Part shown: positions 4,901-56,300 of the stretch, one piece after another
Position numbering within the stretch: position 1 is the stretch's first letter
How the letters are laid out: each line of letters opens with the position of its first letter
Source: Lytechinus pictus
Taxonomy: Eukaryota
Reading direction: 5' to 3'
Assembly: GCF_037042905.1 (NCBI RefSeq)
Contig: NC_087245.1
Coordinates: 27,716,001 to 27,780,000, forward strand
Length of the DNA: 64,000 bases
Notes under the pieces: generated by a model
What the model was told of the DNA's origin: nothing
The model's input: the letters and a program-made list of their open reading frames with translations, nothing else
Databases searched by the model: none
Made by a program: the position numbers and the translations under genes

Positions 4901-7900
4901 CCAGAAGATAATTATCTTTCCTGGTCGATAGTACACATGAATTCCACTCTTTGTTGTGAATATTCTGTTCATTTTTTTTCTCTCCTACATGTTATTACAT
5001 AGAGGAGCATTGCTGAAATTTGATTTTGAATTGATTACAGTATTTATAGAAATGTACAAATAATCCATCATTGTTGCATCTAATTTCAGTTACTTGGTTT
5101 AAAATATCTGATAAAATTTGACTAATTCCAGTTGCTTTACCTTAAATGTAGTCACTGTGGGGCGTTTTTTTTATGGTAAGTTTATTTGACAGTTTTATCC
5201 TGCAGCAGCCCTTGCATTGATATCATATTATTAAGCACTTTAGGAAACCTTGTTTTAATATCTTCATGTTAATGATGCATACATTTATATGTTCATCTAT
5301 GATACAATTCATGCATTGTTCCCCCAATGTCTTTGAATAGAACCTGGATGTCAACCTGGCAGTCAACAACCTGTTGAGCCGTGATGATGAAGATGGTGAA
5401 GATCCTGAGGAGAATGACACCTATCTGTCTGGTGGTGATGACCTTGTCTCACTCTTGGATGGTGGTATCCACTCGGATCATCCAAGCGTCATCATTGATG
5501 CTGACGCCATGTTCTCGGAGGAGTTCTTGGGCCTACCGCCATCGAGGTCCAGAGCTAGAGGCTCCAGCAGTAGAGGTAACTTAATTGTTCTTATGTGGTA
5601 ATTTTGCCGGGATCCGTGTTGTAAATATTTATTTTCTTATAGGTCCTAGGTCTTCCTCCATCAGAACAAGAGACTATGGCAGTAAAGGTACAAGAAAAAG
5701 ATCAGTGTGTTCAGCACTTAACAACTGCAGGGAAAGACATTTCATAAAATATCTTCTGTCTTGTGTAAATTTTCACTGGTAAATTGTTGCAATGCAAGTT
5801 TGCTAATAAGGATCATTTATTCAAATCCAATGGTATATTGTCTCACCTGCATAGCAGAGTGAGACTATAGGCGCCGCTTTTCCGACGGCGACGGCGGCGG
5901 CGGCGTCAACACCAAATCTTAACCTGAGGTTAAGTTTTTGAAATGACAGCATAACTTAGAAAGTATATGGACCTAGTTCATGAAACTTGGCCATAAGGTT
6001 AATCAAGTATTACTGAACATCCTGCCTGAGTTTCATGTCACATGACCAAGGTCAAAGGTCATTTAGGGTCAATGAACTTAGACCATGTTGGGGGGAATCA
6101 ACATCAAAATCTTAACCTAAGGTTAAGTTTTTGAAATGTCATCATAACTTAGAAAATATATGGACCTAGTTCATGAAACTTATACATAAGGTTAATCAAG
6201 TATCACTAAACATCCTGCATGAGTTTCACGTCACATGACCAAGGTCAAAGGTCATTTAGGGTCAACGAACTTTGGCCGAATTGGGGGTATCTGTTGAATT
6301 ACCATCATAACTTTGAAAGTTTATGGATCTGATTCAGAAAACTTGGACATAATAGTAATCAAGTATTACTGAACACCCTGTGCAAGTTTCAGGTCACATG
6401 ATCAAGGTCAAAGGTCATTTAGGGTCAATGAACTTTGGCCAAATTGGGGTATTTGTTGAATTACAGCCATAAATTTGAAAGTGTGTTGGTCTAGTTCATA
6501 AAACTTGGACATAAGAGTAATCAAGTATCACTGAACATCCTGTGCGAGTTTCAGGTCACATGATCAAGGTCAAAGGTCATGTAAGGTCAAAGAACTTTGG
6601 CCACGTTGGGGGTATTTGTTGAATTGCCATCATATCTCTATAAGTGTATTGGTCTAGTTCATAAAACGTGGAAATAAGAGTAACCAAGTATCACTGAACA
6701 TCTTGTGCGAGTTATAGTAGTTTTCAAAATCAGCACTGCTGCTATATTGAATCGCGTGATGCAGGTGAGACGGCCAGAGGCATTCCACTTGTTTGCTTTT
6801 ATCTTGCATATGTACATGTAGATCGTGATCGTGATGCTGAGCGAGATCCACTGCTGCGTAGCCGGGAGCGGCGCTGGCCCGAGATTGTACTCCGAGACAC
6901 TGGATCAGGAGCTAGTAACATGAAGGCTGGTAGCTCTGAGGCAGCAGGAACATCAGATAGCAGACGTGGGGGAGCTGCAGGGCACAGCCAGAACCCTGTG
7001 GTTATTGGAGAGGATCTAGAATGGTGGTCAGAAAAGGTAGGATAGCTAATAGTATCTGACCTTCCCCCTCCCCTTTAAAAACTTATTTTAAAATTGACAT
7101 TGCATCACATAAAAACAATGACAAATTGGAAGTAATTGAAATCAAAAACCTGTACTTACAGCAAGTAATGACTTCACAAGAAACTGAAGAAAGTGTTTGA
7201 AATTTTCACCATATCATGATAGATCTAGGTCTGGTTTAAAAACTATTTTAATATCCTGAGCATGTACATGTAAGCATCAGTTATTTGTGTCCTAAATCTG
7301 TCAGAGATGAAGCATGTTTTTTTAAATTTTCATATGCACTTATGACTTCACATTTTTTTAATGATATAACAAGGTATGTTTGAGCTTCACAAGTTCAAAT
7401 TGTATTCATTCGTTTTTTCCCAAAGTAATGTAATTCAGAACTTGATATGTAAATGTGTTTATTAATTTCTCTTTGTATATATATATGTTTAATCGTTTTA
7501 TGATTTCTGTATACAGTGTATACTGAATCATTTATTTTTATTATTATTTATTTATTTTTATTTTTATTTGTTTATTTTTTATTCATTTTATATATATATA
7601 TATTGTTTATTTCTTTATTTTATCTTATTTTTTATTCATAAAATTTACTTATAAAAGGGGGCCTTCACCCTACAAGCTCTGCTTTTTAGTTGGTCTCCTT
7701 CCCTTTTCGATTTTCATGGTATTATTGTATTATAAAAAAATGATTTAAATGTTATATTTTGTAAATATGTATATTGAGCTATCATTGTAAATGTAAAAAG
7801 ATTGAAAGAGAAAATAAATGAATTGAATTGAATTGATAGTAGTGTTCAATTAAGAATCAAATAATTAAAACTTGATTGATATTCTTCACTGCTATCTGTT

Positions 7901-16900: not shown

Positions 16901-19900
16901 AATTTCAGTACCAGAAAAATATATAAACAAGGGTTGTGTGTTTGCGTTTAATTGTAGATTCCACAAGGGATGTTGATTCAGTTTAATCTTAAGAGGCATT
17001 GCAGATATTCAGATATCAGACATTCAAAATATTATAAGTTACACCTTGCTTGTTCACGTAATATGGGAGATATCTACGTTCTGGGTCCATATTTCATGAG
17101 GCCAGAGGCTGAATGGAATATTGAACCAGAACGTAGATATTTCCCCGTATTTCGTAAGAACAAGCATGTAACAATTTTATCTCTATTAGTGTCTCTTTAT
17201 ATTATTGCCGAATAGGAGAAATCAATAAAATAGAACTTAAAAAATTTTGCAAAACTATGCATTTTAAGAGTAATTTTTGAAAGGAAGTCATTCATGACAT
17301 CTCTATGATCACAGTAAAAAAAATGCGCCTTTTGCCATTGAAATTGATGCGCAAATTGTAGTGTGCAGTGCGATTCTTGAATATATGGCCTCATATTACC
17401 TGGTTGAAATCAGCACATTGCATGCGTGTAACAATGAAAACAACAACAGCTAAACACCACTGGGTCACAAAGATCAAACAGGTAATAGGGGCTCATATTA
17501 CCTGTTTGATCTTTGTGACCCAGTAAAATAGGTAAATACAGGTTTGTCTCACAAACAAATCGACCAATCAGATTACAGAATTCATGAGAAATATGGTCCA
17601 CTAAAAGATAAATTATGCTGAAATAAAATCCCATATGCCTGTGTAATAGTAACAATTGTTTTTTTACATTACATTGTTTTATACTGCAGATAGTTAACAG
17701 ATATGATATACAAGGGGTATTGCTGCTCAGTAACTTATGCATCTATGTCTCAAATTTACACAAATATTGATACATGTAAATAGGACTCCACATTCAAGAA
17801 AGCTCACACCTTGTTCCCTCTGGCTATTCACTTCTCATGTGACTGAAAGTAACATACTGAGACCTTCCTCAACCTAGTGACCATGACACCATTTTTTATC
17901 AAACAAAAATGGGGCAACACCTTTTATCCCATAGCAAAATTGCCTCTTTATCATGGGAAATCTAATCTGGGTATGTTACTTGAGTCCAAACATGTTTTGG
18001 TTAGAGGAGAATGGAACCCTTGAAACCAGCAAATTGTATAAAAATTGTATAAAAAACCCAGATCAGTGACAGTTGACAAAATGAGTAATCAATAAGAAAG
18101 TTATAAAGCGTTTGAATATTGGGATGTCTTAAGTAATGTAGATCCTCTTATATGATGTGACCAAGATGTGTGATGTCACTCATGAACATAGACATTTCCA
18201 TTAAGTTTGTGCAAAAAGAAAGTGATGGGAGAAATCACCAAAGCTTATTTTGATCTCCTAGTTTATGCTTAAAATCAGAAAACGGTAATTTTGTGATAAA
18301 ATTAGAATCGAAAAGATTCTTAGCTCTTTAATTTTCTGGTCGATTTCTTGCCAACCCTTTCATTGTTCTGCTTTTATTAGTAAAACCAACCCATTAGGGT
18401 GAACCTCCCTTTAATGTGATTCCAACCTTGTTTCATTCATTCAGGACTCTGTAACCTTACTCCAAGATGGGAACAACACCTTGTATCCGTTGGCTAAGAC
18501 GGCTACTGTGACGATCAGGGATCCTAACTGGGTCGACCTTCCACCCATCCGTAGCCTGAGCATGGGCGTGCATCATCTCCCTCACCCCGGGCAGTCTACG
18601 AACATCAAGAGTAAAGCAGCTATCATGGTCATGGCTATAGAGGTATGTCAATACTTCTCACTCTCTCTTTCTGTTTCTATTCTTCAAAGGGAAAATACAG
18701 AGTTTTTGTCTCACCTGCATAGCAGAGTGAGACTATAGGCGCCGCTTTTCCGACGGCGACGGCGGCGGCGGCGGCGTCAACACCAAATCTTAACCTGAGG
18801 TTAAGTTTTTGAAATGACAGCATAACTTAGAAAGTATATGGACCTAGTTCATGAAACTTGGCCATAAGGTTAATCAAGTATTACTAAACATCCTGCCTGA
18901 GTTTCATGTCACATGACCAAGGTCAAAGGTCATTTAGGGTCAATGAACTTAGACCATGTTGGGGGAATCAACATCAAAATCTTAACCTAAGGTTAAGTTT
19001 TTGAAATGTCATCATAACTTAGAAAATATATGGACCTAGTTCATGAAACTTATACATAAGGTTAATCAGGTATCACTAAACATCCTGCACGAGTTTCACG
19101 TCACATGACCAAGGTCAAAGGTCATTTAGGGTCAATGAACTTTGGCCGAATTGGGGGTATCTGTTGAATTACCATCATAACTTTGAAAGTTTATGGATCT
19201 GATTCATGAAACTTGGACATAATAGCAATCAAGTATTACTGAACATCCTGTGCAAGTTTCAGGTCACATGATCAAGGTCAAAGGTCATTTAGGGTCAATG
19301 AACTTTGGCCAAATTGGGGTATTTGTTGAATTACAGCCATAAATTTGAAAGTGTGTTGGTCTAGTTCATAAAACTTGGACATAATAGTAATCAAGTATCA
19401 CTGAACATCCTGTGCGAGTTTCAGGTCACATGATCAAGGTCAAAGGTCATGTAAGGTCAAAGAACTTTGGCCACGTTGGGGGTATTTGTTGAATTGCCAT
19501 CATATCTCTATAAGTGTATTGGTCTAGTTCATAAAACGTGGAAATAAGAGTAACCAAGTATCACTGAACATCTTGTGCGAGTTATAGTAGTTTTCAAAAT
19601 CAGCACTGCTGCTATATTGAATCGCGTGATGCAGGTGAGACGGCCAGAGGCATTCCACTTGTTTTTTTTAGTAGTTCATGTTCAAATGTATCATTAATCT
19701 CTCTATCGAAACTTTACTTGTCATTGGCATCTGAAATTTCGAACAGCATCTTGGTTTTGGCATAACAATCGACTGATATTTACTTCAAGCTGTTATTGTG
19801 TTTGATTTTTAGAAATGAATAATGAATAGAACATTTTCAATTTTTGATAAATGGAACATGTTTCAAGATAATCAAAGCTCATACTTAGCTAATTAATTTC

Positions 19901-22900
19901 CAAGAATTTACTTATTAATAAATAATTTTTTTAAAATCGTTAAGAATGTGATGTTTAATTTTTGCTTACACAGAACCAGCTGTTGATGCCCCATGTACTG
20001 AGGTGTGATTATGAAGCAGTCTCTCATTTCCTTAGCAATCTTCAGTTAGAACCAAGTAAGTGACATCTTAATCACATCAATTTGGCTTCAATATGAATCA
20101 TTTTTGTTAATGAATGCTTTCTGTTTTTGTAAAGGATTGTTTTTCTTCTTGTGATTTCAGTTTGTCTCCACTTGTTGTTTCCCGTTTTTTTTTCAGCTTA
20201 AGCGGGTCCATGTTTATAAGATAATTTTATAATGGTGATGCACAGAATAGCTTTACAAGAAATGGAATAAGTAGCGTTCATCTTCCTTTTGGGATGTTGC
20301 CTTATCCCGGGGAGCGTTCCATGAAAGGACTTGTCATACGTTTTATGAGACATTTACCATGGGAACTGTGCTTCTCAGGCAGTCAAAATTAAGAAAACCT
20401 GTCAGATTTGACAACTTGGGCAAAAATTTCGATGAAATATTCCCCAGGGTTTCCTATTTGTTGTATGTGATTGGGCAATGAACACGTTATTAATGCTTGT
20501 TTCATTGCTGGCAGATGTGTATCATGCACGATCTGCTTTTCATAGATGGAGCCGTTTAGGGCCTGCTTGATCCTTCACAGTGATAAGATGTGTAGACTCT
20601 TGCCCCATTGCCCTTTACCACATCTTTCAGATATGTCATACAACAGCTACAGGCTGGCAATCATTACGAAGAGAGTAATTTAATTAAAAAAAAAAAAGAC
20701 TTGTTATGATAACAAATGCACTATCTCTATAAAAAGTTTATTATCAGCCAATCAGACTGAATAATTTCAGGAGCTTTGAACTGTTATTGCAAGTTTATTA
20801 TTGTAACAAGTTTTATGAAACAGACCCCTGTTTTAATGAGACGATGACCCTGACATGATTGTTATTCTTTTCCAATAGTTCCTGCGATCAAGGAGCAGAA
20901 GCTACAGCATCTTGTTGAGGAGAGGTGTGATGGAGGGAGAAACATCTTCCATGCCTGTGTCAGTCTATGCAGACCACTCTCAAATCAGACCAACAACTCA
21001 TCAACGGGTGAGAGGGCATTTTATCCTAATAATGATAATGATAATGATATTAATAATATGCAACATTAATATAATATTAAGGATAGTATCTGTTGTTGGG
21101 CTAAACTCGCTAACATAATGCTCAAATTCCCCATTGGAATTGGAAAGTATTGTCAATCACTTGACATTAAAAACCACACTGTATGCGGGGATGGAAATGG
21201 CTTGATGCATATGAGGCGCCGAATGTACCAATATTATATAGAACAATTATTTGTTATATAATCATTATTTATTAAATAATAACTATTATTTATATATAAT
21301 TTACATTTTATTTGTAAATAACTACTATTATATAAAATATCATTTCTAATTATTTATATATAATTCCAAGTAATACTTCATTATTTGTAAATAATAATAG
21401 TTCGACATTCCATTATTTATAAATAATGATTATTTGTTTTTCATTATTTATAAATAATGATTATTTGTTTTTCATTATTTATAAATAATGATTATTTGTT
21501 TTTCATTATTTATAAATAATGATTATTTGTTTTTCATTATTTACAAATAATGATTATTTGTTTTTCATTATTTATAAATAATGATTATTTGTTTTTCATT
21601 ATTTATAAATAATGATTATTTGTTTTTTCATTATTTATAAATAATGATTATTTGTTTTTCATTATTTACAAATAATGATTATTTGTTTTTCATTATTTAT
21701 AAATAATGATTATTTGTTTTTCATTATTTATAAATAATTTGTTGAGTTTTCCATTATTTATAAATAATGATTATTTGTTAAATAATGAAAACGTCTACTT
21801 CATTATTTATAAATAATTTTTTCGAGTGCACCATTATTCTCATTATTTATAAATAATCATTATTTAATGTTCGAGTTTTCCATTATTTATAAATAAAGAT
21901 TATTTGTTAAATAATGAAATATCTACTTCATTATTTATAAATAATAATTTTGTTTCAATATCCCATTATTTATAAATAATCATTATTTATAAACAATTTT
22001 TACAGTTTGCCATTATATACAAATAATCATTATTTATATACAAATAACCATTATTTATTAAATAATGCCATTATTTATTAAATAATGCCATTATTTATTA
22101 AATAATGGAAAACTCGCTATAACATGCAAATGTGGGACCGCCCATGATATGAATATTCATGATGCGATTTCCTTTTTCGTGATTTTTCTTCACAAATTTT
22201 TGTCCATTTCCTCTTCATAATGACATTTCTTGAAGCAATTTTCTAGGGATATGGTCTGATTGTAATATTCTTCATTTTCTATATAACTTCGTCTTCGTAG
22301 AAATATCAAAAAGTGTAATTCTATACGATTTTTCCTACAGTTCACAATCCCCATAGGCGCGCGTGTATCGTAGGGACAACCGGTGAATCGACGGAGTGCT
22401 CTTCATCGAAATACTACGTTGGTTGGTCCCCGGAAGTGGCGGGCGGAATTTAGCCCGAATCCTCGATGGAAGTCGATCAAGTGCATATGAGCTGAGAGAG
22501 TGAAATATCAGCTTGTACAGGCCCTTCTACTTTTTATAAATATTTCTTGTTGCTTTTTTTGTTAAGTTAATTTTTCCTGGTGTAGCTAGAGATAAGTTTC
22601 AGTTCTAATAATGCACTTCAAATACATTTTGGAGTGTCTGTTTGAGGCGATTTCACCCTGGCCCCAAAATGCTCGCAACGACAGTACGGGGGCATGATGA
22701 CCCCTAAATTTTTAAAAACTTATTTTTCTATTGAAAATTATCACAAAATTCACAAAAAGTGTGCACGAAAGCCTTCGTATTTCACTTTTAAAACTAAAAA
22801 AAGTGCCCAAATGACAAGCTTGGTCGCTTCGCTGTGTCGCTTTCAACTTGAGAACGTTTACGCGTCTGCTTCCCCCCCCCCGGCCCTCCTCCGAAAGAAA

Positions 22901-25900
22901 TTCTGTATACGGCCATGCTCTAAAGAGCCTGGCACATTGATTTATGTATACTTCATTTTCATTATTTTTATCTCATTATCATCATGGCCTTATGCAGAAT
23001 TTTTTCCAGGGGGGCCGGGGCCAGAGCATGACGCGCGTAAACTTTCTCAAAAAAATCTTGAAAGCGAGACAGCCACGGGACCAAGCCCAAATGACAAGCT
23101 TGGTCGCTTCGCTGTCTCGCTTTCAACTTGAGAACGTTTACGCGCGTCTGCCCCCACCCCCCAAAATAAATTCTGGTCGCGTCGCTGTCTCGCTTTCAAG
23201 ATTTTTTTGAGAAACTTTACGCGCGTCCTAGCTGCATGCTCCCCCCCCCCCTGGTAAAAATTCTGTGTAAGACCATGATGATAATGTGATAAAAATAATG
23301 AAAATGAAAAGTACATATAAATCAATGTGCCATATGCTCTTTTGAGCATGGCCGTTCACAGAATTTCTTTCGGGGGGTGGGGGCAGACGCGCGTAAACGT
23401 TCTCAAGTTGAAAGCGAGACAGCGAAGCGACCAAGCTTGTCATTTGGGCACTTTTTTTAGTTTTAAAAGTGAAATACGAAGGCTTTCGTGCACACTTTTG
23501 GTGAATTTTGTGATAATTTTCAATAGAAAAATAAGTTTTTAAAAATTTAGGGGTCATCATGCCCCCGTACTGTCGTTGCGAGCATTTTGGGGCCAGGGTG
23601 AAATCGCCTCAAACAGACACTCCAAAATGTATTTGAAGTGCATTATTAGAACTGAAACTTATCTCTAGCTACACCAGGAAAAATTAACAAAAAGTCCTCT
23701 GTACAAAAAATCATGATAAAGCTGAAAATGTATTTGAAGTGCATTATTAGAACTGAAACTTATCTCTAGCTACACCAGGAAAAATTAACAAAAAGCGAGC
23801 ATTTTGGGGCCAGGGTGAAATCGCCTCAAACAGACACTCCAAAATGTATTTGAAGTGCATTATTAGAACTGAAACTTATCTCTAGCTACACCAGGAAAAA
23901 TTAACTTAACAAAAAAAGCAACAAGAAATATTTATAAAAAGTAGAAGGGCCTGTACAAGTACACTGATATTTCACTCTCTCAGCTCATATGCACTTGATC
24001 GACTTCCATCGAGGATTCGGGCTAAATTCCGCCCGCCACTTCCGGGGACCAACCAACGTAGTATTTCGATGAAGAGCACTCCGTCGATTCACCGGTTGTC
24101 CCTACGATACACGCGCGCCTATGGGGATTGTGAACTGTAGGAAAAATCGTATAGAATTACACTTTTTGATATTTCTACGAAGACGAAGTTATATAGAAAA
24201 TGAAGAATATTACAATCAGACCATATCCCTAGAAAATTGCTTCAAGAAATGTCATTATGAAGAGGAAATGGACAAAAATTTGTGAAGAAAAATCACGAAA
24301 AAGGAAATCGCATCATGAATATTCATATCATGGGCGGTCCCACATTTGCATGTTATAGCGAGTTTTCCATTATTTAATAAATAATGGCATTATTTAATAA
24401 ATAATGGCATTATTTAATAAATAATGGTTATTTGTATATAAATAATGATTATTTGTATATAATGGCAAACTGTAAAAATTGTTTATAAATAATGATTATT
24501 TATAAATAATGGGATATTGAAACAAAATTATTATTTATAAATAATGAAGTAGATATTTCATTATTTAACAAATAATCTTTATTTATAAATAATGGAAAAC
24601 TCGAACATTAAATAATGATTATTTATAAATAATGAGAATAATGGTGCACTCGAAAAAATTATTTATAAATAATGAAGTAGACGTTTTCATTATTTAACAA
24701 ATAATCATTATTTATAAATAATGGAAAACTCAACAAATTATTTATAAATAATGAAAAACAAATAATCATTATTTATAAATAATGAAAAACAAATAATCAT
24801 TATTTGTAAATAATGAAAAACAAATAATCATTATTTATAAATAATGAAAAAACAAATAATCATTATTTATAAATAATGAAAAACAAATAATCATTATTTA
24901 TAAATAATGAAAAACAAATAATCATTATTTGTAAATAATGAAAAACAAATAATCATTATTTATAAATAATGAAAAACAAATAATCATTATTTATAAATAA
25001 TGAAAAACAAATAATCATTATTTATAAATAATGGAATGTCGAACTATTATTATTTACAAATAATGAAGTATTACTTGGAATTATATATAAATAATTAGAA
25101 ATGATATTTTATATAATAGTAGTTATTTACAAATAAAATGTAAATTATATATAAATAATAGTTATTATTTAATAAATAATGATTATATAACAAATAATTG
25201 TTCTATATAATATTGGTACATTCGGCGCCTCATAGATGCAGACATTGACAATAGGGTAAAAATGATATGTAGCCTTTTTTTAAAGTATACAATGATTAGG
25301 ATACCATTGAAGCCAGTCTTGAGCTTTTTCATTGCACTAATGAATATATGATAAGGAAAATTAAACAATTTAAAAAGAAATCATCAGACACTTTATTATG
25401 TCCTTCATGTTAATGGGGATGAATGAACTTTACCCTTTGACCTTAACAGAATCCAGCAGTCTGGCTACTTTGACCTCTGAAGTGAGCAGCCGTGCTAAGA
25501 TGTTGTGTAATGCCCTCCACACTCTGAGCAACGCAATAGCGGGAGCAGCTATGGCTTCTGGTAGTGGTCCCAGTTCACATGGGTAAGTGAGTCGGGGGTT
25601 GGGGGCGGAGGGGGTGTTTGGTGTTTCTCAGTGCTGTAACTCTAACTTTCTCAAATATAACTGTGACTCGACTCAAGTGAGGGGTATTTTGATATTTTCC
25701 AGTGCTGTAACTCTAACTTTCTCAAATATAACACTCAAGCAGTACAGAGAGCGCACATATTTATTATGTGAATATTGTTAAGTTGAAGGGAAGGTGTATC
25801 ATGCCTGTATGGTGAAGTGCATGACCTATGGTAGGGAGGCATGGGCAACAAAATCATCCAGCTTGGAGCAAGTTGAAGGCTGAGATAGATATACAGGGTT

Positions 25901-49900: not shown

Positions 49901-52782
49901 CCAGTCAGCTATCCTTAATATGTGAGTTTGCTTTAAGTCCATTACTTCTTTATTCTTTTGGGTTACACTTCAAGTAAATCAAAGGTATTTTGAGACCTGA
50001 ATGTACTTGGGGAAAAAGTAAGCTAATGAATATCCAGTCAGCTGTTCTTGCTCTGACCACTATGTCCAAACAATGGTGAAAATCAATTGTATGATCAATT
50101 CTAGTTTTTGTATCAGTTTAGCATGAGTCTCTATTTACTAATTATGTAATTTTGCCTCCGACGAAGATTCTGCTAGGATCGAAAGCTTAGGCCCCTTTTT
50201 GACTTTCTAATTTACTCCATTGGCTCTCTTTTATTAGATAAGCAGTTTTCAGCAGCTTCTTTTTGCCATTACTTATGTAATAGTGAGACTGTCCAGTTTC
50301 TTTCATGATGCAATACCCTCCTTTTCAGATTGGTTGGCATGACCTGGCTTTCTTTGACTCAACCCTCTATGAGGGTCTACGCCAGCTACTCCTGGATGCA
50401 GAACGAGGTCACGCTGCAAGCATCGCTGCCATGGAGCTGACATTCTCCATCCAGCTGAGTAAGGAGGAAGGAGGTCAGACGGTCGATCTTATCCCAGGAG
50501 GGAGCAGGGTCAGCGTCAATACGGACAACATCTTCGAGTATGTCAGGCATTACGCAGAGTACAAGATGGTAACTGTGGCTCACAAGTGTCTCACGGTAAG
50601 TTTATCCTACAACTCAAATGGTTCAAAGATATTTGATCCTGCCACAATTCCTCCTGCTGAAAATATACATGTTAACCCTAGCCAGGCCAGGCTTTTTTTG
50701 TGTGTTAGCTGACCGTAATTTTCAGTAGCATATCACTTACTGTTATTTTTTGTATGAAGGAGAGCAGTGGTAAACTGACCACCTAGATTCGATATCAGGT
50801 GCTTGTTTCATGAAGAACTATGGAAACTATATCGTAAATGTGATTTGCTGCAGAGCCCTGTTACCATAATGACAAAGTTACCATAATTATCAGTCTTTAT
50901 GAAGCAGACCCCTGGCCAAATACCCTTGAGGAATGCATTTGTTCTTTCTCTACCAGTTGCATGTGGGAGAGGTGCTCACTCTATAGTGATGTCACAGTGT
51001 GGACAAGTTGCACAGGTTTCTGCCAGATGAACATTTCTCTATTGAAATAAAAAGAAAAGTGTGTCAAGAATATCGTATGAAACTTATCTTTCTTTGTTTC
51101 AATCTACTATCCGACCCCCACCCCACTCTCCATGCAGTCTATGAGGCAAGGACTGTTTGATGTCTTGCCACGTAATTCAATGGATGGCCTCACTGCTGAG
51201 GACTTCCGGTTACTGGTCAATGGATGCGGCCAAGTCAACGTCCAGATGTTGATCAGCTACACTACATTCAATGATGAGACAGGCAAGCTAGGTGAGTGCC
51301 CCCATCGCATTATCTCTTTTTTTCGGATTAAGACTCATAGTAGATGAAAAGTGATATTTTGTGTCCATATGAATCTACTACAATGCATAGCAAAGTTCAG
51401 GATTAAAAAAAAAATAAAGACCCTTTTATTTCCATCATGAAATTTTCAAAGAATCATTGGCCATTCCTGGCAGAATTCACTGTGTCCTATAATCATAATT
51501 ACCATGGATTTATTTCAATACAGAGCAATATATCCTCTAGGTATAAAGTGGACTAAAGCTCCTATTTTTCTTTTTTTTAATCCTTAGGTGATGGTCACAG
51601 TAATGAAGGCAATGACAAGCTGTCTACCTTCAAACTATGGTTCTGGAGTATTGTAGAAAAGATGTCAACTCAACAAAAACAAGATTTGGTGAGTAAACAT
51701 GGAGACACTTATCCACCGGTTTCCATTGCTAAGAAGACATTCTACTTTATCCCCTCTTCACCCTGGGGGATTTTTCACATTGTACAAACCTGCCAACCTA
51801 TACGATTTAGTTGTATTTGTTAAGCTTTTTGAGGTGGAAGAGTGTTCAAATTGTTAAATATTGGACGGAAAAATAGCACTGATTCACTTTGAGCACACTG
51901 TAGCAGTGCAGTACACACTTACATATGCACGTGCCATCATGTGAAAATTCTATTTAGCACGTAGAGATCGTAGAGATCTTGAAGCACGCCCGGGGGCTGG
52001 GAATTACAGGAACCATACACACCCACATACCACACTCAAATCCATTATCAAATCAAGGCAAACCGGAAGTTGCAGTTGTCTTTAAATACATGTATGTACA
52101 AAATCAATGCAGTTGACTTTTTCCCTAGTTTATTTTTTGCTTTGTCATGTTGAAGATACAATCAAATAGTTTTAGAAATACCTCCTACTTTGCTATTTGA
52201 TCTCTGATGATTATCGCTTCTCTGGTAAAAATATGATTAGTCACATGAAGCCCTCTTGACCACTTTATGAGCAACAAATTTTCAAGAAGGGATATAACAA
52301 GTCTATATTTGGTTATTCTCTTCGATATTCCATTGTTATTCTTACAGAATTCAGTGATTATACTTTTATATGTATATTGCATATTTAGTGTAATGATAAC
52401 ATCAGACATTTAGGTGTACACAAAATATAAGTTTTATAGCTGCTAATATTTAACATCAATATGTGATACCTTGTACACCCCCACCCCCCCCCCCACCCCC
52501 AGTGAAAACCTTTCTCAGTTGATATCAGTGTAACTTTGAATATTTTTGTTCTTTTCTCAAACCTTACAGGTGTATTTTTGGACCTCCAGCCCCAGTCTAC
52601 CAGCTAGCGCAGAAGGTTTCCAGCCCCTCCCTACCATCACAGTACGCCCACCCGATGATAACCACCTCCCAACCGCCAACACCTGCATCAGCCGTCTGTA
52701 CATCCCACTCTACAGCTCAAAGGCTATCCTCAAGAAGAAGCTGTTACTTGCTATTAAGACCAAGGCCTTTGGTTTCGTCTAG
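1863..52782 (+). CDS. UBR5: E3 ubiquitin-protein ligase UBR5 (EDD/hyd) ortholog, 50 coding exons in window, 5'-partial (first coding exon upstream of window)
   Basis: The spliced translation gives hallmark UBR5 motifs: [20 protein letters not shown] ([45 protein letters not shown]), UBR box ([39 protein letters not shown]), MLLE (ITGMLLE) and HECT end ([27 protein letters not shown]). All introns are GT-AG and exon phases are consistent throughout. Confidence 0.97.
1933..2131. mobile_element. Short hAT-like MITE
   Basis: cagggct...agccctg termini. Confidence 0.4.
2805..2886 (+). CDS. UBR5: UBR5 exon (..[11 protein letters not shown])
   Basis: acag|...|gtaag; conserved motif. Confidence 0.92.
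3045..3545. repeat. Degenerate (GAT/TGA)n microsatellite
   Basis: Long gatgat/ggt low-complexity run in an intron; source of spurious ORFs. Confidence 0.9.
3583..3665 (+). CDS. UBR5: UBR5 exon ([15 protein letters not shown]..)
   Basis: atag|...|gtaag; conserved motif. Confidence 0.92.
4045..4179 (+). CDS. UBR5: UBR5 exon (Ser-rich; NAGNAG acceptor, alternative start 4048)
   Basis: tagcag acceptor, gtgag donor, phase 2-2 open frame. Confidence 0.8.
4602..4839 (+). CDS. UBR5: UBR5 exon (UBA domain start)
   Basis: [28 protein letters not shown]; atag|..|gtaagt. Confidence 0.93.
5341..5575 (+). CDS. UBR5: UBR5 exon ([18 protein letters not shown]..)
   Basis: Conserved motif; atag|..|gtaac. 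Confidence 0.92.
5643..5687 (+). CDS. UBR5: UBR5 small symmetric exon ([15 protein letters not shown])
   Basis: ttatag|..|gtacaa; 45 nt, phase 1-1, open frame. Confidence 0.65.
5840..6792 (+). mobile_element. Non-autonomous Helentron/HINE-like element, copy 1
   Basis: Subterminal IR gtctcacctgcat / atgcaggtgagac, (GGC)n, ~160-190 bp internal repeats, ends cttgt in a T-run; near-identical to 18708-19662. Confidence 0.75.
6822..7036 (+). CDS. UBR5: UBR5 exon ([26 protein letters not shown])
   Basis: Conserved RERRW and GEDLxWW motifs. Confidence 0.88.
7983..8105 (+). CDS. UBR5: UBR5 exon (..[16 protein letters not shown]..)
   Basis: Conserved motif; GT-AG. Confidence 0.92.
8865..8975 (+). 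CDS. UBR5: UBR5 exon ([10 protein letters not shown]..)
   Basis: Conserved motif; GT-AG. Confidence 0.9.
9120..9500. mobile_element. Degenerate palindromic MITE with ttggtcta/tagaccaa subterminal repeats
   Basis: Left half repeats ttggtcta; right half repeats its reverse complement. Confidence 0.5.
9871..10028 (+). CDS. UBR5: UBR5 exon ([15 protein letters not shown]..)
   Basis: Conserved motif; GT-AG. Confidence 0.92.
10707..11476. mobile_element. piggyBac-like MITE
   Basis: TTAA|ccctaactctcccggg ... cccgggagaattaggg|TTAA, with G/C-run subterminal palindromes. Confidence 0.85.
11551..11662 (+). CDS. UBR5: UBR5 exon (WGVLP..KVLEKAR..GTQ)
   Basis: Conserved motif; GT-AG. Confidence 0.92.
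12271..12658 (+). CDS. UBR5: UBR5 exon ([23 protein letters not shown])
   Basis: Conserved motif; GT-AG. Confidence 0.93.
13712..13870. mobile_element. Short Harbinger-like MITE (family also near 8640-8811, 20308-20447, 29300-29449, 34422-34574, 38858-39010, 50798-50914)
   Basis: TIR ggggcgtttcat / atgaaacgctcccc; related cgtttcataaag..tttatgaaac ends recur across the window. Confidence 0.65.
13923..14053 (+). CDS. UBR5: UBR5 exon (..[17 protein letters not shown])
   Basis: Conserved motif; GT-AG. Confidence 0.92.
14623..14919 (+). repeat. 137-bp tandem duplication (period 160) with a hairpin at the junction
   Basis: 14623-14759 vs 14783-14919, two mismatches seen. Confidence 0.9.
15505..15621 (+). 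CDS. UBR5: UBR5 exon ([23 protein letters not shown])
   Basis: Conserved motif; GT-AG. Confidence 0.93.
16041..16152 (+). CDS. UBR5: UBR5 exon (..[14 protein letters not shown]..)
   Basis: Conserved motif; GT-AG. Confidence 0.92.
16726..16880 (+). CDS. UBR5: UBR5 exon (GVHVLVK..FPTD..)
   Basis: Conserved motif; GT-AG. Confidence 0.9.
17037..17174. mobile_element. Palindromic non-autonomous element remnant
   Basis: gttaca..tgcttgttc..atatctacgttctgg mirrored by ccagaacgtagatat..gaacaagcatgtaac. Confidence 0.55.
18445..18642 (+). CDS. UBR5: UBR5 exon (..[24 protein letters not shown]..)
   Basis: Conserved motif; GT-AG. Confidence 0.93.
18708..19662 (+). mobile_element. Non-autonomous Helentron/HINE-like element, copy 2
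   Basis: Near-identical to copy 1; inserted in a T-run. Confidence 0.75.
19974..20055 (+). CDS. UBR5: UBR5 exon ([15 protein letters not shown]..)
   Basis: Conserved motif; GT-AG. Confidence 0.9.
20879..21007 (+). CDS. UBR5: UBR5 exon (..[17 protein letters not shown]..)
   Basis: Conserved motif; GT-AG. Confidence 0.9.
21210..25234. mobile_element. 4-kb foldback (long-TIR) transposon, non-coding, GATGCA flanking duplication
   Basis: GATGCA|tatgaggcgccgaatg ... cattcggcgcctcata|GATGCA; ~1.9-kb arms with an outer 31-bp tandem array. Confidence 0.9.
25450..25582 (+). CDS. UBR5: UBR5 exon
   Basis: aacag|..|gtaagt; phase 1-2 open frame. Confidence 0.85.
25788..26180 (+). pseudogene. RTE-clade LINE remnant (C-terminal of RT)
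   Basis: Decayed frames read [19 protein letters not shown].. and RCRLR*YG, like the RTE KGKVY..MLYG.ETW..RLRWYGH region. Confidence 0.6.
26393..26562 (+). CDS. UBR5: UBR5 exon (..[11 protein letters not shown]..)
   Basis: Phase-consistent; SWxPxP motif. Confidence 0.82.
27130..27352 (+). CDS. UBR5: UBR5 exon (..[18 protein letters not shown])
   Basis: Conserved motif; GT-AG. Confidence 0.9.
27770..28076 (+). CDS. UBR5: UBR5 exon ([33 protein letters not shown])
   Basis: Start of UBR box. Confidence 0.94.
28110..28260 (+). mobile_element. tRNA-derived SINE (decayed)
   Basis: Box A tggcctagtgg, box B ggttcaaatgcc, then body gctgcactcaacccaggtga..tggatacc. Confidence 0.6.
28747..28838 (+). 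CDS. UBR5: UBR5 exon (UBR-box zinc finger)
   Basis: [30 protein letters not shown]. Confidence 0.95.
29749..29895 (+). CDS. UBR5: UBR5 exon ([16 protein letters not shown]..)
   Basis: End of UBR box. Confidence 0.95.
30376..30482 (+). CDS. UBR5: UBR5 exon ([15 protein letters not shown]..)
   Basis: Conserved motif; GT-AG. Confidence 0.92.
30886..31009 (+). CDS. UBR5: UBR5 exon ([12 protein letters not shown]..)
   Basis: Conserved motif; GT-AG. Confidence 0.93.
31233..31835 (+). mobile_element. Diverged, shorter relative of the HINE-like element
   Basis: atctcgcctgc..ataggcaccgcttt start; aggtcaaaggtca repeats; atgcaggtgaga..attccacttgt end. Confidence 0.65.
31937..32060 (+). CDS. UBR5: UBR5 exon (..[18 protein letters not shown]..)
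   Basis: Conserved motif; GT-AG. Confidence 0.92.
32651..32808 (+). CDS. UBR5: UBR5 exon ([27 protein letters not shown]..)
   Basis: Conserved motif; GT-AG. Confidence 0.92.
33280..33445 (+). CDS. UBR5: UBR5 exon (..[17 protein letters not shown]..)
   Basis: Conserved motif; GT-AG. Confidence 0.93.
33898..34077 (+). CDS. UBR5: UBR5 exon ([12 protein letters not shown]..)
   Basis: Conserved motif; GT-AG. Confidence 0.9.
34635..34758 (+). CDS. UBR5: UBR5 exon (IDMVEGD..)
   Basis: Phase-consistent GT-AG. Confidence 0.85.
34770..35190. mobile_element. Fully palindromic MITE (Harbinger-like GGCC termini)
   Basis: ggcccgaattcacaaag ... ctttgtgaattcgggcc; arms pair to the centre. Confidence 0.8.
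35527..36325 (-). pseudogene. hAT (ZBED-like) transposase remnant with an intron at 35711-36022
   Basis: SHTADNL, VTDNTAN, CFANTL (CxxH lost); after a GT-AG intron, [14 protein letters not shown]; then a frameshift. Confidence 0.8.
37340..37538 (-). mobile_element. hAT-like terminus, probably belonging to the transposase remnant
   Basis: TAGTGCTGTTATCGATAACC on - strand with repeated tatcga subterminal motifs. Confidence 0.5.
37716..37865 (+). CDS. UBR5: UBR5 exon ([22 protein letters not shown]..)
   Basis: Conserved motif; GT-AG. Confidence 0.92.
38199..38400 (+). CDS. UBR5: UBR5 exon (..FFSEDESS.. acidic)
   Basis: Conserved FFSED motif; GT-AG. Confidence 0.9.
39093..39226 (+). CDS. UBR5: UBR5 exon (..PLQWAFRN..)
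   Basis: QWAxRN motif; GT-AG. Confidence 0.88.
40363..40616 (+). CDS. UBR5: UBR5 exon ([23 protein letters not shown]; alternative in-frame acceptor 40372)
   Basis: Conserved motif; GT-AG. Confidence 0.9.
41119..42459. mobile_element. Tc1/mariner-like non-autonomous element, long TIRs, TA TSD
   Basis: TA|cagtgcgtataaaaaaaaacgggacagatttg ... caaatctgtcccgtttttttttatacgcactg|TA. Confidence 0.85.
42796..43543 (+). CDS. UBR5: UBR5 exon ([38 protein letters not shown])
   Basis: Conserved motifs; GT-AG. Confidence 0.95.
43998..44261 (+). CDS. UBR5: UBR5 exon (LEILPTQMS.. acidic)
   Basis: Phase 1-1; LExLPTxMS motif. Confidence 0.88.
44710..45568 (+). CDS. UBR5: UBR5 exon (large Ser/Gly-rich disordered segment)
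   Basis: 859-nt open frame, phase-consistent GT-AG. Confidence 0.85.
45759..45969 (+). CDS. UBR5: UBR5 exon ([34 protein letters not shown])
   Basis: Conserved motif; GT-AG. Confidence 0.95.
46596..46851 (+). CDS. UBR5: UBR5 exon (HECT N-lobe: [24 protein letters not shown])
   Basis: Conserved HECT motif. Confidence 0.95.
47114..47364 (+). CDS. UBR5: UBR5 exon (..[15 protein letters not shown] start)
   Basis: MLLE helix motif. Confidence 0.93.
47998..48128 (+). CDS. UBR5: UBR5 exon ([17 protein letters not shown]..)
   Basis: ITGMLLE signature. Confidence 0.94.
48800..49045 (+). CDS. UBR5: UBR5 exon (..[23 protein letters not shown])
   Basis: Conserved HECT motif. Confidence 0.93.
49615..49699 (+). 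CDS. UBR5: UBR5 exon ([13 protein letters not shown]..)
   Basis: Conserved HECT motif. Confidence 0.94.
50154..50192 (+). ncRNA. Minimal type-I hammerhead ribozyme-like motif (Penelope-like)
   Basis: gcct-CCGACGA-a-gattct(gct)aggatc-GAAA-gc-TT-aggc. Confidence 0.55.
50329..50595 (+). CDS. UBR5: UBR5 exon ([16 protein letters not shown]..)
   Basis: Conserved HECT motif. Confidence 0.94.
51138..51291 (+). CDS. UBR5: UBR5 exon ([24 protein letters not shown]..)
   Basis: Conserved HECT motif; possible alternative GC donor after 51282. Confidence 0.92.
51588..51688 (+). CDS. UBR5: UBR5 exon (..[16 protein letters not shown])
   Basis: HECT C-lobe motif. Confidence 0.93.
52570..52782 (+). CDS. 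UBR5: UBR5 last coding exon (HECT catalytic Cys in LPTANTC; ends KTKAFGFV*)
   Basis: Conserved motif; TAG at 52780-52782. Confidence 0.96.
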
Positions 52783-53310
52783 ATCCTTAAGGATGCCCTA
52801 TGCTGTGAAGTCTCCCTTTGAATAATCAGAGCCTTGCTCTTAGAGCCTTTGATTTTTGCCTTTATGAACCCAAAGAAGCTGTTATTTGCTTTCAAAACCA
52901 AGGTGTTTGGTTTTGTTTAGGATGCCTACATTTTGAAGTCACCCTTTGGATAATCAGAGCCTTGCTCTTGAAGCATTTGATTTTGGTCTTATGAAACTGA
53001 AGAAACTGATACTTGCTATCAGGATCATTGCGTTTGGTTTCGTCTAGATCCTGTGGGATGCCTTATGATGTGAAGTCGCCCTTTGAATACTCAGAGCCTT
53101 GCTCTGGAAGCATTTGATTTTAGTCTTATGAAAACCTGAAGAAGTAGTCACTTGCTATCAGGACAGAGGCCTTTTTGGTTTTGTGTAGATCCTTTAAGAT
53201 AGCCTATGCTAGGAAGCTCAGAGATACGCTCTTGAAGCATTTGATTTTAGTCTAATAAATTTATGAACCTGCAGGAGAAGCTTTTAATTGCTAACAAAAT
53301 CCAGGGCTAG
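52732..53310 (+). repeat. Diverged tandem repeat (~130-140 bp unit, about 4.5 copies) of the UBR5 terminal codons plus proximal 3' UTR
   Basis: Recurring aagaa(g/a)ctg.ta.ttgct...tttggttt.gt.tag and tcagagccttgctct blocks. Confidence 0.9.
53254..53259 (+). promoter_or_regulatory. Candidate polyadenylation signal AATAAA
   Basis: First AATAAA after the UBR5 stop; use not demonstrated. Confidence 0.3.
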
Positions 53311-56300
53311 TGACATTGTGACGACCTGTAAGGTGTCTGAGGTTGTTTAATGGCTCTTTGAACAACCGTAGCCCTCCTTTACCAGCATTATGACCGTCTT
53401 ATTCCATCATAATCTGTCTGCTTCTACAAAGCCCTGGAGGAAAGGACTCATCTAGACCAATGCCAGACATGCTGTCTCATGCCTTAGGTGTTAGGGACTT
53501 GTGCTCATCCCCCAAATATCTTTCTCATACCTGTATCACAGCCTAACCTCATATATACATTATACACAATCCTGGTGATCTCTCATGCCTAGTTACGATT
53601 CCATGCCTAATACCTTTACGCATCAATGGTCTTTGAACTCAGCATGTCTGCAGTGCGAGCAATGTGCCTAGATCTTTAAGTACCATCTTTACTCTGACAT
53701 ATATATATATATTACCCCATCAGAAGCCTAGCTATTTTGGTTTGTCAAAATTGTTCTTTAAGAAAGTGATGCTACGCCTACTATTCCTAAGAGGCTGATT
53801 GAGATTCAGTTATCAAGAACAAGATCTAAATTGCTTATCTATTTTCTGCTAGCCTATGTAAACCATTTTAGAAAAATCTGTCAGGCCCATTACTGGCATG
53901 AGTGTAGTCCTGAGATAGTGGTCTGATTCTTTCCTCAAAAACACAGATGTCATGAATATTCCCTTCGGTAAGCATCGGACGTGGGCATTTTATCTTGCCT
54001 CTTGCTTCCGGCTCTTGTACTGACCAAGAATGCTACATGTATTGTACACTTGTTCAGGATTACCGTAGGAGAGCATCGTTCAAGATGAATTTGAGGATGA
54101 AGATGCATTGGTGATGAATTACTGAGAGCAATGAGAACAATCCTCGACTTCATGGCATGTCCTATGCTTCATCCGGTTTTTAGTTCTAAAACTCCTGACT
54201 ACTGAATTTTTAAATTCACATAGGCTACATGTACGTACAGGGACTTCCCTGTTTCAATAGCCAATGGGTTGATACTGTATGCTAGTCAATAACATCTTTA
54301 GACCGGCATGTCAATAACATCTTTAGATTGAAATTTCTTCAGTAAGAACATCGCAACTTCATGCTGATGAGGATGAAGATGCTGGTGTGAATGAACATTG
54401 ATTGGTTCCAACTAACACCTGTACATGAACCATTATTGCCACTAGTGTCATGGCTTTCGGCGCACCAAGCCAATCTGCAGCCTTGCTCCAGTTGGGGAAT
54501 TTACCTTTACAAGTTCATCTGATCCCTATGCATGCATGGGGTATCTTTGGGATACCCCATTTCATTGATTCAGTATTCAAATTCAACTCGAGATTCAGTT
54601 CATCCATTGTGCAAGGTTGATATGCTATCGCTAATCTAGCAATGAGTGTGAGTGTGCTCTGCGGAATGTACTACAGAAGAAAGTGAAAGCGTGTGTCCTC
54701 GTAAACTTTGTTCTTTGATATGGAGTACTGTTCATGCATCAAAATTAGATGGTGTAGCAAAGCAAGATAGATGAACATGAGCTTGGAAGTGTAGTTTGGG
54801 AAGGATGGTGGGGTAGAAATCTGTGGATGATCAAAAGAGGACACTGACAAGTAGAGCTAGAGTTGAAGGAAATTTACAATGTTTTGTCTTTGAGTTAAGA
54901 TGCAGTAGAAATTGTTGAATATTACAAAGATGCAAAATAACTTGAGTCATGTAGACAAGATGTCTGTATCTCGTATGGTTCTGAATTACCTTGTTTTTTT
55001 TTTTAAATATATTTTAAATGGCACTGATTTTTGTTGTGCTTATTTTATGTAATGAGCGGACAGCTCAAAATTATGTTTTCTTTTATTTTTTTATTTTTAT
55101 TTCAATCCAGGACCCCTTTGCATTAAATTGAAGTTACTATTAGTGTAACTATGCCATCCAGTGGTCTCCTTCATCCTTCATTTTGATTGTCTGCTGGGTA
55201 TTGTAACCATGGTAGTTAACGTTGGATGATATTTACGGTAGTAGTAATTTTTATACAATGGAGCCTAGACCTTCCTTGATGAGGTAATTGTAAAATTGGA
55301 CAGACATTAAAAAGCTTTGATCAGCATTACTATCAAATATGTATCAGATTCAAGTCATTTTGATCCCAGCAGGAATTCAGAGTGACCAGTATGATGCAAA
55401 TATGGAAATATGTAACAAGTATAATTTGAATATACCGGTATTGATAATGTAGGAATGGCCCAGATAACCAAAAATACTATCCCTGTGTGTTAATTCCATA
55501 TATGTGATTGCGAGCAATTTGCATACATGTAGTTGGTGTTAGAGAGGACATGTTACGGATCTGTTGATATTTGATTATGATTAGCGAGATTGTGCAAGAT
55601 TCGTTGGTATTAAAAAGTAATAATAATGTACTGTGAAATCATTCATGTGTGAGCATGTGTTTGTGCTTGTCTGGGCCAATGATATGTAAGACTTGATTGG
55701 CAAGTGTAACAATATTTCAAATCATGGAAAGTTTGTTTTGCTCCAAATGTCTCTTAATTTTCTTTACATGTTTTTAATGTATGGCCAGTTTGAGCTTTTA
55801 TATACAAATTTCTTTTCTCCCGCAAGCTGTGTACCATACTTTTTATTTTCCACTGCACTCCTACATTCTGCAGTATAGTGACAAAGAAAGAAAGAAATTT
55901 GATGTTTTATTTAAAACTGCATTTCATGTCAGAAAAAAAGAATATGTTGTAAAAAAAAAGTGCTGTAGTAAGAGTAGATAGACTAGAACTAAGTAGTTTA
56001 GATTTGATGCAGAGTTGATGTAGCCACTGTCAAGATTAAGAAAGATTCAATGGAACAGATTAAAGGCAACTTTAACACCTCAAAAATGTGTTTATTTTGC
56101 TTTACTTTGTACGTGAAGGCCATCTAGAGAGGTTAGATTGATTTGGTAGAGAACCTGAAAATTTCAGTGTGTATGTGATATGTACAGCGGTAAGAGAGCG
56201 GGCTTATTTGTAGTCTTTGGCTGTACAGTATAGTTGATTCCTTGCTTTGGCGCTATATCATGGATACAGACGGCCAGTGTCCCCGCTGTCGAGCAAGCTA

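Follow-up and report, generated by a model that had tools for sequence, protein, structure and literature searches.

A copy-number-variable tandem repeat straddling the stop codon of a predicted UBR5 gene in Lytechinus pictus, with extra copies that change as neutral DNA

The end of a gene predicted to be UBR5 in Lytechinus pictus has been duplicated in tandem into its own 3' UTR, and the resulting array is likely a neutral, copy-number-variable minisatellite straddling the stop codon. Within the window, i.e. the whole 64,000-nucleotide stretch analysed (NC_087245.1, positions 27,716,001 to 27,780,000), the array consists of five degenerate head-to-tail units of 127-139 nt, the arrangement that characterises a minisatellite or VNTR, each unit made of the last ~16 codons, the stop codon and ~85 nt of UTR (Table 1). 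Minisatellite units usually measure 10-100 nt, and the UBR5 unit, at ~135 nt, is longer. Units were 70-88% identical; a 37-nt core was present in five copies with 70-81% identity to the coding copy and a spacing of 138, 127, 139 and 136 nt. Blastn analysis of the copies against the master unit, which is the final ~49 nt of the last coding exon, returned E-values of 1e-11 to 1e-17, far beyond chance; TRF at a score of 40 did not report the array. Because the copies have diverged and an independent contig agreed with 53001-53502 at 0 differences, the array is not an assembly artefact. The original prediction of a HECT tail duplicated into the 3' UTR was confirmed in both its coordinates and its translations.

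Table 1 Features of the UBR5 array and its surroundings, in window coordinates
Feature	Position	Strand	Description
UBR5 last coding exon (predicted)	52570..52783	+	HECT C-lobe with catalytic Cys, tail, TAG; Pfam and homologue matches, spliced joint
Unit 1	52735..52863	+	Coding tail, stop, ~80 nt UTR
UBR5 3' UTR	52784..56100 (end approximate)	+	~3.2-3.3 kb; contains whole array; stranded RNA depth
Stretch missing in second expressed haplotype	52832..53343	.	Removes copies 2-5
Copy 2 tail	52864..52920	+	Intact 18-aa ATG ORF; T at -3, A at +4 (weak start context)
Copy 3 tail	52991..53047	+	Intact 18-aa ATG ORF; 5 amino-acid changes versus master
Copy 4 tail	53128..53188	+	Out-of-frame ATG (stop after 3 codons), internal stop, 2-nt insertion
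AATAAA at copy 4/5 junction	53254..53259	+	RNA depth 12.3 then 13.8, no drop
Copy 5 (partial, most diverged)	53263..53310	+	15-aa ORF ending before FGFV position; FGFV lost

The gene carrying the array matched the Pfam HECT domain (2.6e-18) and human UBR5 (7.6e-39), and we identify it as UBR5 on sequence similarity. The splice joint 51687->52569 (GT..AG) was present in 4/4 RNA runs. FGFV formed the C-terminal end in 112/120 of the homologues listed, and the master tail agreed with the usual UBR5 tail. Stranded RNA depth was 8-12 over the array, 7-9 over the last coding exons and 0-1.5 over introns, fading at about 55,960-56,200; by this measure the repeats, whose presence in the transcript had been raised as a question, lie within the mature UBR5 mRNA.

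The copies carry small ORFs of 15-18 aa, 81-480 nt past the main stop in the same mRNA, i.e. start-stop pairs of 10-100 codons in its 3' UTR. As predicted, the 18-aa ORFs of copies 2 and 3 are intact, copy 4 is disrupted and the ORF of copy 5 encodes 15 aa. An ATG does precede each copied tail, as had been claimed, but these ATGs do not represent four events: all four come after an identical UTR word at one shared junction, which was copied with the unit. FGFV and TAG were preserved in copies 2, 3 and 4 with synonymous changes only, and in copy 4 they sit in a different frame from the ATG at 53128. This survival is a small, post-hoc signal counter to neutrality among related copies. At four positions where copy 2 differs from the master, master-like letters were found in 5 of 6-8 X21 reads and also in X9 and X18.

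Tests of selection indicated that protein-level constraint on the extra units is absent. Across 33 copies from 12 arrays (copies within one array are not independent), 141 synonymous (S) and 188 non-synonymous (N) changes gave a synonymous share of 0.429 versus 0.424 expected (p=0.87), the expectation combining neutral copies, a protein-constrained master with a fully neutral synonymous rate and a transition bias of 2.5. UBR5 copies alone gave S16 N17 (p=0.49 versus neutral), 33 changes only and thus of low power, and copies 2 and 3 gave S8 N8 (p=0.62). Among the 33 copies, 10/15 indels were frameshifting and 8 stops had newly arisen. The last four residues were not better kept than the rest (24/124 changed versus 144/670 elsewhere, p=0.63), the stop was retained in 20/30 copies, and an in-frame ATG was found genome-wide in 9/31 copies (10 with UBR5 copy 5), versus 30% by chance. 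Copies 2 and 3 have F at -11, F at -9 and I at -6, residues seen in 0/112 natural UBR5 tails. The conservation of frame and amino acids (dN/dS below 1) in relatives that marks a functional micropeptide was not found, since the S:N ratio is neutral, residues are non-native, and other haplotypes and species lack the copies or have them out of frame.

Copy number varied among alleles and relatives, as in a minisatellite or VNTR. The deletion joint 52831->53344 of a second expressed haplotype was found in X21 and X1, two studies of organism A, and was supported in X21 by 5 reads with 5 distinct starts. With CC..GT at its ends and 2 letters inserted, this gap is not an intron. All sightings of the deletion come from RNA-type data in which an array-bearing haplotype was also present, and the haplotype that carries it is ~10% diverged in the UTR. 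Contig depth in X1, a poor measure of haplotype expression, was 22.8 for the deletion haplotype versus 30.6 for the array-bearing one. Array copy number also differed in a related species (RNA-type data only): joints 52855/6->53258 and 53100->52734 in X18, and 52989->53258 in X9, indicated other copy numbers, together with an out-of-frame junction. Any influence of the array on UBR5 expression could be gauged against the natural deletion allele, which is a ready-made control.

Neutral duplication, the last alternative listed in the original prediction, agrees with the neutral S:N ratio, the frameshifting indels, the chance-rate ATGs and the deletion haplotype. We propose that a local tandem duplication of ~135 nt took in the final ~16 codons, the stop and the beginning of the UTR, and that it would have been harmless because ribosomes presumably stop in the 5'-most copy. 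By chance, the new junction would have set a UTR ATG before the copied codons; that junction was probably carried along in later expansions. Selection on the protein would act on the first unit only; the other units gather substitutions, indels and stops at a neutral rate, have been variously gained and lost across haplotypes and species, and are transcribed passively within the 3' UTR. Slippage, unequal crossing-over or end-joining may be the molecular route. A dispersed, frameshifted copy of the last exon on contig C8 (85% identical) showed a similar level of decay.

In the portion of PMC1557585 available, intron 7 of human F7 carries a 37-bp VNTR spanning a gene boundary. Similarly to the UBR5 array, its first unit spans the coding end, the boundary signal recurs in the units that follow and copy number varies; in both, use of the 5'-most copy would keep those further units silent. 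Unlike the F7 repeat, the UBR5 array is built on a stop codon rather than a splice donor, has units of ~135 nt and is found in mature mRNA. The 40-bp VNTR of human SLC6A3/DAT1, with an effect on expression in vitro according to the title of PMC1325255, is likewise a variable-number 3' UTR repeat that leaves the protein unchanged, but the available text does not describe it as derived from its own coding tail.

A role at the RNA or translation level, independent of the peptide, with the copies acting as dORFs that raise main-ORF translation or as a multiplied stop-proximal RNA signal, appears unlikely. Neutral amino-acid change is no argument against it, and weak selection would explain why arrays are kept in large conserved genes, where they are in excess at stops. 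The array lies inside the mRNA, and its small ATG ORFs behind the main stop resemble translated dORFs in length (median 19-20 aa) and in distance from the stop (105-245 nt); translated dORFs act through their number rather than their peptide, according to the accessible text of PMC7459409. The same text reports a potential dORF in 82-87% of vertebrate mRNAs, few of them translated, and defines dORFs by ribosome footprints, whereas the UBR5 ORFs are candidates identified from sequence and mRNA, derive from a coding-tail copy, and have weak start contexts and ATGs not above chance. The RNA regulatory element originally suggested found no counterpart in a fold test (z 0.15, -0.99, -0.38 and -0.04, nothing unusual) or in Rfam (0 matches at E up to 1), and contig depth, though a poor measure, was similar for the expressed deletion haplotype.

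That the copied ORFs yield tail-mimic peptides is very improbable, despite the FGFV and stop kept in two intact 18-aa ORFs and ATG-led tail copies in a small-HERC-like gene on C18. The importance of Phe at -4, noted in the original prediction, agrees with 10.1101/2023.06.06.543850, which in its available part reports the -4 and -2 Phe as required for chain formation; the tail structure described there relies on a covalent link to ubiquitin, in cis, and a free peptide would be unlikely to compete. Non-native residues fall at near-invariant positions, copies 4 and 5 and the junction of the other species are broken, one haplotype dispenses with copies 2-5, and UBE3C-like, HECTD4-like, PIKK and dynein arrays mostly have no junction ATG. 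A reservoir of alternative C-termini, with a copy's tail moved onto the HECT domain by splicing, readthrough or unequal crossing-over, is likewise very improbable. Copies 3 and 4 have their stops in the main frame (+264, +405), and copies 4 and 5 each follow an AG-ended pyrimidine tract; against this, the only spliced joints seen were the two normal GT..AG introns, with none into any copy at an RNA depth of ~10 (rare forms would be missed), use of the acceptors before copies 4 and 5 would be predicted to lose the catalytic Cys, an in-frame stop follows 13 codons beyond TAG, the conserved tail is on the master, and most arrays have units whose length is not divisible by three.

Taken as a neutral minisatellite, the UBR5 locus alone matters little, the protein being unchanged. 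It is a warning that duplication of a coding tail automatically yields small ORFs that are intact and bear a motif that looks conserved. Elsewhere in this genome, too, the ends of many genes have undergone the same process. Stop-spanning copies were found in 7/29 HECT, 2/6 PIKK and 3/16 dynein heavy-chain genes; they are not HECT-specific (7/29 versus 5/22 for PIKK and dynein, p=1). Together, these large conserved genes had them in 12/51 cases, versus 2/108 internal exon ends in those genes and a 2.3% array background, i.e. about ten times more frequently; the figure for shorter genes was 1-4/96. Plain neutral tolerance does not explain this excess. It is possible, if somewhat doubtful, that stop codons of large conserved genes in this genome are a hotspot of duplication, or that copies arising there are preferentially retained. 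If true genome-wide, this would imply a mutational process linked to the ends of long coding sequences and as yet undescribed, or weak selection for a repeated stop-proximal RNA context, and each protein's C-terminus would leave a dated fossil record in its own UTR. The wider pattern could bear on 3' UTR growth and on the sites of small duplications in germline-expressed genes. In several arrays, the youngest copies adjoin the coding unit.

Re-reading of the sequence bore out the array as first described: 3' of the UBR5 stop codon, the last ~16 codons are repeated four times together with the stop and ~85 nt of UTR, at intervals of 127-139 nt. The exon carrying the master unit encodes the end of the HECT domain and is nearly identical to human UBR5 in domain and protein comparisons. 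Tblastn with five homologues mapped 32 UBR5 coding blocks in the window, and the best protein match among those listed was sea cucumber UBR5. The original prediction placed an ATG at each repeat junction. An ATG is present at all four, but in each case the junction is the same and an identical UTR word precedes the ATG, indicating a single event that was copied rather than four. They carry a T at -3 and an A at +4, a weak start context by the Kozak rule. The array was missed by TRF and contains no inverted repeats. A dispersed element was ruled out, since a DNA search of the genome with the array alone (a search that ignores very common words) gave no second copy. A dispersed copy of the last UBR5 exon, with its splice acceptor and ~30 nt of UTR, was found on contig C8; it is 85% identical, frameshifted and without the array.

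RNA-type data consisted of one stranded raw run (X21) and three contig sets, representing 4 of 23 listed runs. Depth in X21 was 8-12 over the array, 7-9 over the last coding exons and 0-1.5 over introns, which places the array inside the mature mRNA, a point raised earlier as one to check. The same run indicated that the 3' UTR extends to ~56,000, with no fall in depth after the AATAAA. Alternative C-termini produced by splicing received no support, the only spliced joints in the four runs being two normal introns. A further joint (52831->53344) removes copies 2-5, has ends unlike those of an intron and contains two inserted letters. It was detected in X21 (5 reads with 5 starts) and in X1, which comes from another study (contig depth 22.8 vs 30.6). 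This deletion rides on the non-reference of two UTR haplotypes found in organism A, which are ~10% diverged; many of its letters are those of organism B, and it may represent a deep or introgressed allele. The array was also present in X9 and X18 with different copy numbers, and therefore predates the divergence of these organisms; in these two sets, the ATG of one junction reaches a stop after three codons. Four letters separating copy 2 from the master were master-like in 5 of 6-8 X21 reads, as well as in X9 and X18, and these reads may derive from a differently arranged array.

Features of the window and of the Lytechinus pictus genome (G000; C-numbers are contigs, L-numbers loci; unlabelled positions refer to the window)
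Feature	Location	Strand	Observation
UBR5 coding blocks	3583-52779
Composite arrays	5906-6713; 18777-19583		near-identical; 163-193 nt units; separate introns
AT-rich 31-nt tandem arrays	21377-21779; 24696-25067 (within 21234-25180)		opposed as inverted arms; resemble a foldback transposon inside a UBR5 intron
Open frame, 123 aa	35957-36328	-	resembles a hAT/ZBED transposase fragment
Last UBR5 exon	52570-52783
UBR5 tail codon -5	52766-52768		Ala
Copy 2	52864-52920		intact 18-aa ATG ORF, as predicted
Copy 3	52991-53047		intact 18-aa ATG ORF, as predicted
Copy 4	53128-53188		disrupted, as predicted; frame lost relative to its ATG
Copy 5	53263-53310		truncated
AATAAA	53254
UTR haplotypes	53340-56100
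Short 3' UTR element	55127-55231		many partial read matches, plus a joint on the opposite strand; probably a dispersed repeat, small and palindromic
Last-exon copy (L002)	G000:C8:13001303-13001527	-
Small-HERC-like genes	L061, G000:C18:12601000-12604400; L062, G000:C18:25669500-25673000		each 4-5 copies of the terminal ~36-46 codons, catalytic Cys included
Further stop-spanning copies (HECT, PIKK, dynein, one P450)	L056 (C2), L029 (C11), L124 (C20), L129 (C10), L202 (C10), L205 (C20), L200 (C4), L116 (C13), L046 (C5), L053 (C16)		L205: 159-nt period, in frame with main ORF
Dispersed HECT C-terminal matches, e.g.	C1:27815384, C6:3890098, C3:16228444, C3:48370413, C21:7422106, C8:40811174

Substitution analysis indicated that the copies decay neutrally. 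Across 33 copies in 12 arrays, 141 synonymous and 188 nonsynonymous changes were counted, a synonymous share of 0.429 against the 0.424 expected (p=0.87) if the copies evolve neutrally and only synonymous changes accrue in the master; copies within one array are related, so that these counts are not fully independent. The UBR5 copies alone gave a ratio of 16:17 (p=0.49). Ten of 15 indels shifted the frame and eight new stops had arisen in the 33 copies, the original stop being retained in 20 of 30. The last four residues were no better preserved than the others (24/124 vs 144/670 changed, p=0.63), and an in-frame ATG was found in 9 of 31 copies against 30% by chance. As originally noted, FGFV and TAG are kept in copies 2 and 3, and also in copy 4, with synonymous changes only, which counts against the neutral reading. 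We treated this survival as chance because one of these changes is a CpG transition and because, in copy 4, the motif and the ATG lie in different frames. Together with the variable copy number, the substitution, indel, stop and ATG counts support neutral duplication.

The proposal that the copies encode tail-mimic peptides drew on the importance of the tail Phe residues for UBR5, which a structural study upholds (10.1101/2023.06.06.543850), describing them as acting in cis at the thioester-linked active site. FGFV forms the C-terminal end in 112 of the 120 UBR5 homologues listed (of 263 found), and none of those 112 has the F at -11 or F at -9 of copy 2, or the I at -6 of copy 3. With these residues absent from natural tails, a neutral substitution ratio and ATGs at chance rate, tail mimicry was not supported. 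At tail residue -5, Asn occurs in 79/112 and Ala in 12/112 of these homologues; Asn was tied to a hydrogen bond in the human structure paper (10.1101/2023.06.06.543850). The best rival to neutral duplication is a putative RNA-level role, since translated dORFs of like size exist and act by their number and not their peptide (PMC7459409); folding and Rfam searches returned nothing pointing to an RNA regulatory element. Tandem structure, mRNA position, neutral spectrum, variable copy number and recurrence at other gene ends are all shown by the data. We classify the array as a boundary-spanning VNTR, a known kind. A duplication including the stop would be tolerated since the 5'-most unit preserves the protein. 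Likewise, in the F7 intron 7 VNTR (PMC1557585), the 5'-most boundary copy, there a donor, is the one used.

A protein search of the genome revealed tandem tails in a second HECT gene, and the last 90 coding nt of individual genes were compared with sequence up to 1.4 kb downstream. Stop-spanning copies were found in 7/29 HECT genes (7/27, then 0/2 more), five of which carry multi-copy arrays; an eighth gene, with a 34-nt displaced piece, was added by a less stringent self-comparison. This count excludes ~12 intronless multi-copy G2E3-like ORFs, one C11 gene without a located last exon and the C8 pseudo-copy. The genes examined include those we take to be HERC-like, UBE3C-like, HECTD4-like, ATM-like and DNA-PK-like. 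Large genes make up the HECT, PIKK and dynein families. Tail copies also occurred in 2/6 PIKK (FATC) genes and 3/16 dynein heavy chains, so that a HECT-specific phenomenon was rejected, and the dynein result weakened an explanation based on tail-critical enzymes. Shorter-gene families gave 1/13 for P450, 2/42 raw for Ras and 1/30 raw for trypsin, with none in E2 (0/5), cullin (0/4) or PARP (0/2), few last exons having been found for E2 and PARP.

Short tandem duplications are common in this genome: downstream of the stop, 147 genes held 28 other arrays, and 132.8 kb of gene bodies held 23. Stop-spanning copies in large conserved genes (12/51) exceeded those at internal exon ends in the HECT and dynein members of this set (2/108, p=2e-5), these ends being defined by profile matches and not annotation; none was found at the 31 mapped blocks of UBR5 internal exons. 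The internal rate was in line with the array background (~2.3% per 135 nt) and the stop rate was ten times background. Compared with the 96 shorter-gene controls, of which ~20 inferred stops look intronic, the excess was significant both raw (4/96, p=6e-4) and after three of the four matches (Ras, trypsin) were discounted by eye, one as AT-rich at a likely intron and two as not stop-spanning (1/75, p=7e-5). Against the conserved small set only (E2, cullin, PARP; 0/11) it was not significant (p=0.10). Part of the excess could stem from longer detectability beside a conserved master, part from faster turnover of introns and part from the harm that duplicated donors cause. The possible excess around stops of large conserved genes is the part deserving a genome-wide test. 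No description of stop-spanning duplications was found in a literature search of partly accessible sources with most subscription journals outside its coverage, which is weak evidence.

Among the genes carrying such copies, L061 has an ATG starting three copies, two bases past the preceding stop. Its youngest copies (97-98%) adjoin the gene and one older copy resembles the tail of the paralogue; an internal exon end of this gene is copied as well (L028). Elsewhere in the genome, about a dozen dispersed HECT C-terminal matches have near-identical scores, many within ~600-aa open frames, and presumably represent a mobile-element-borne G2E3-like family.
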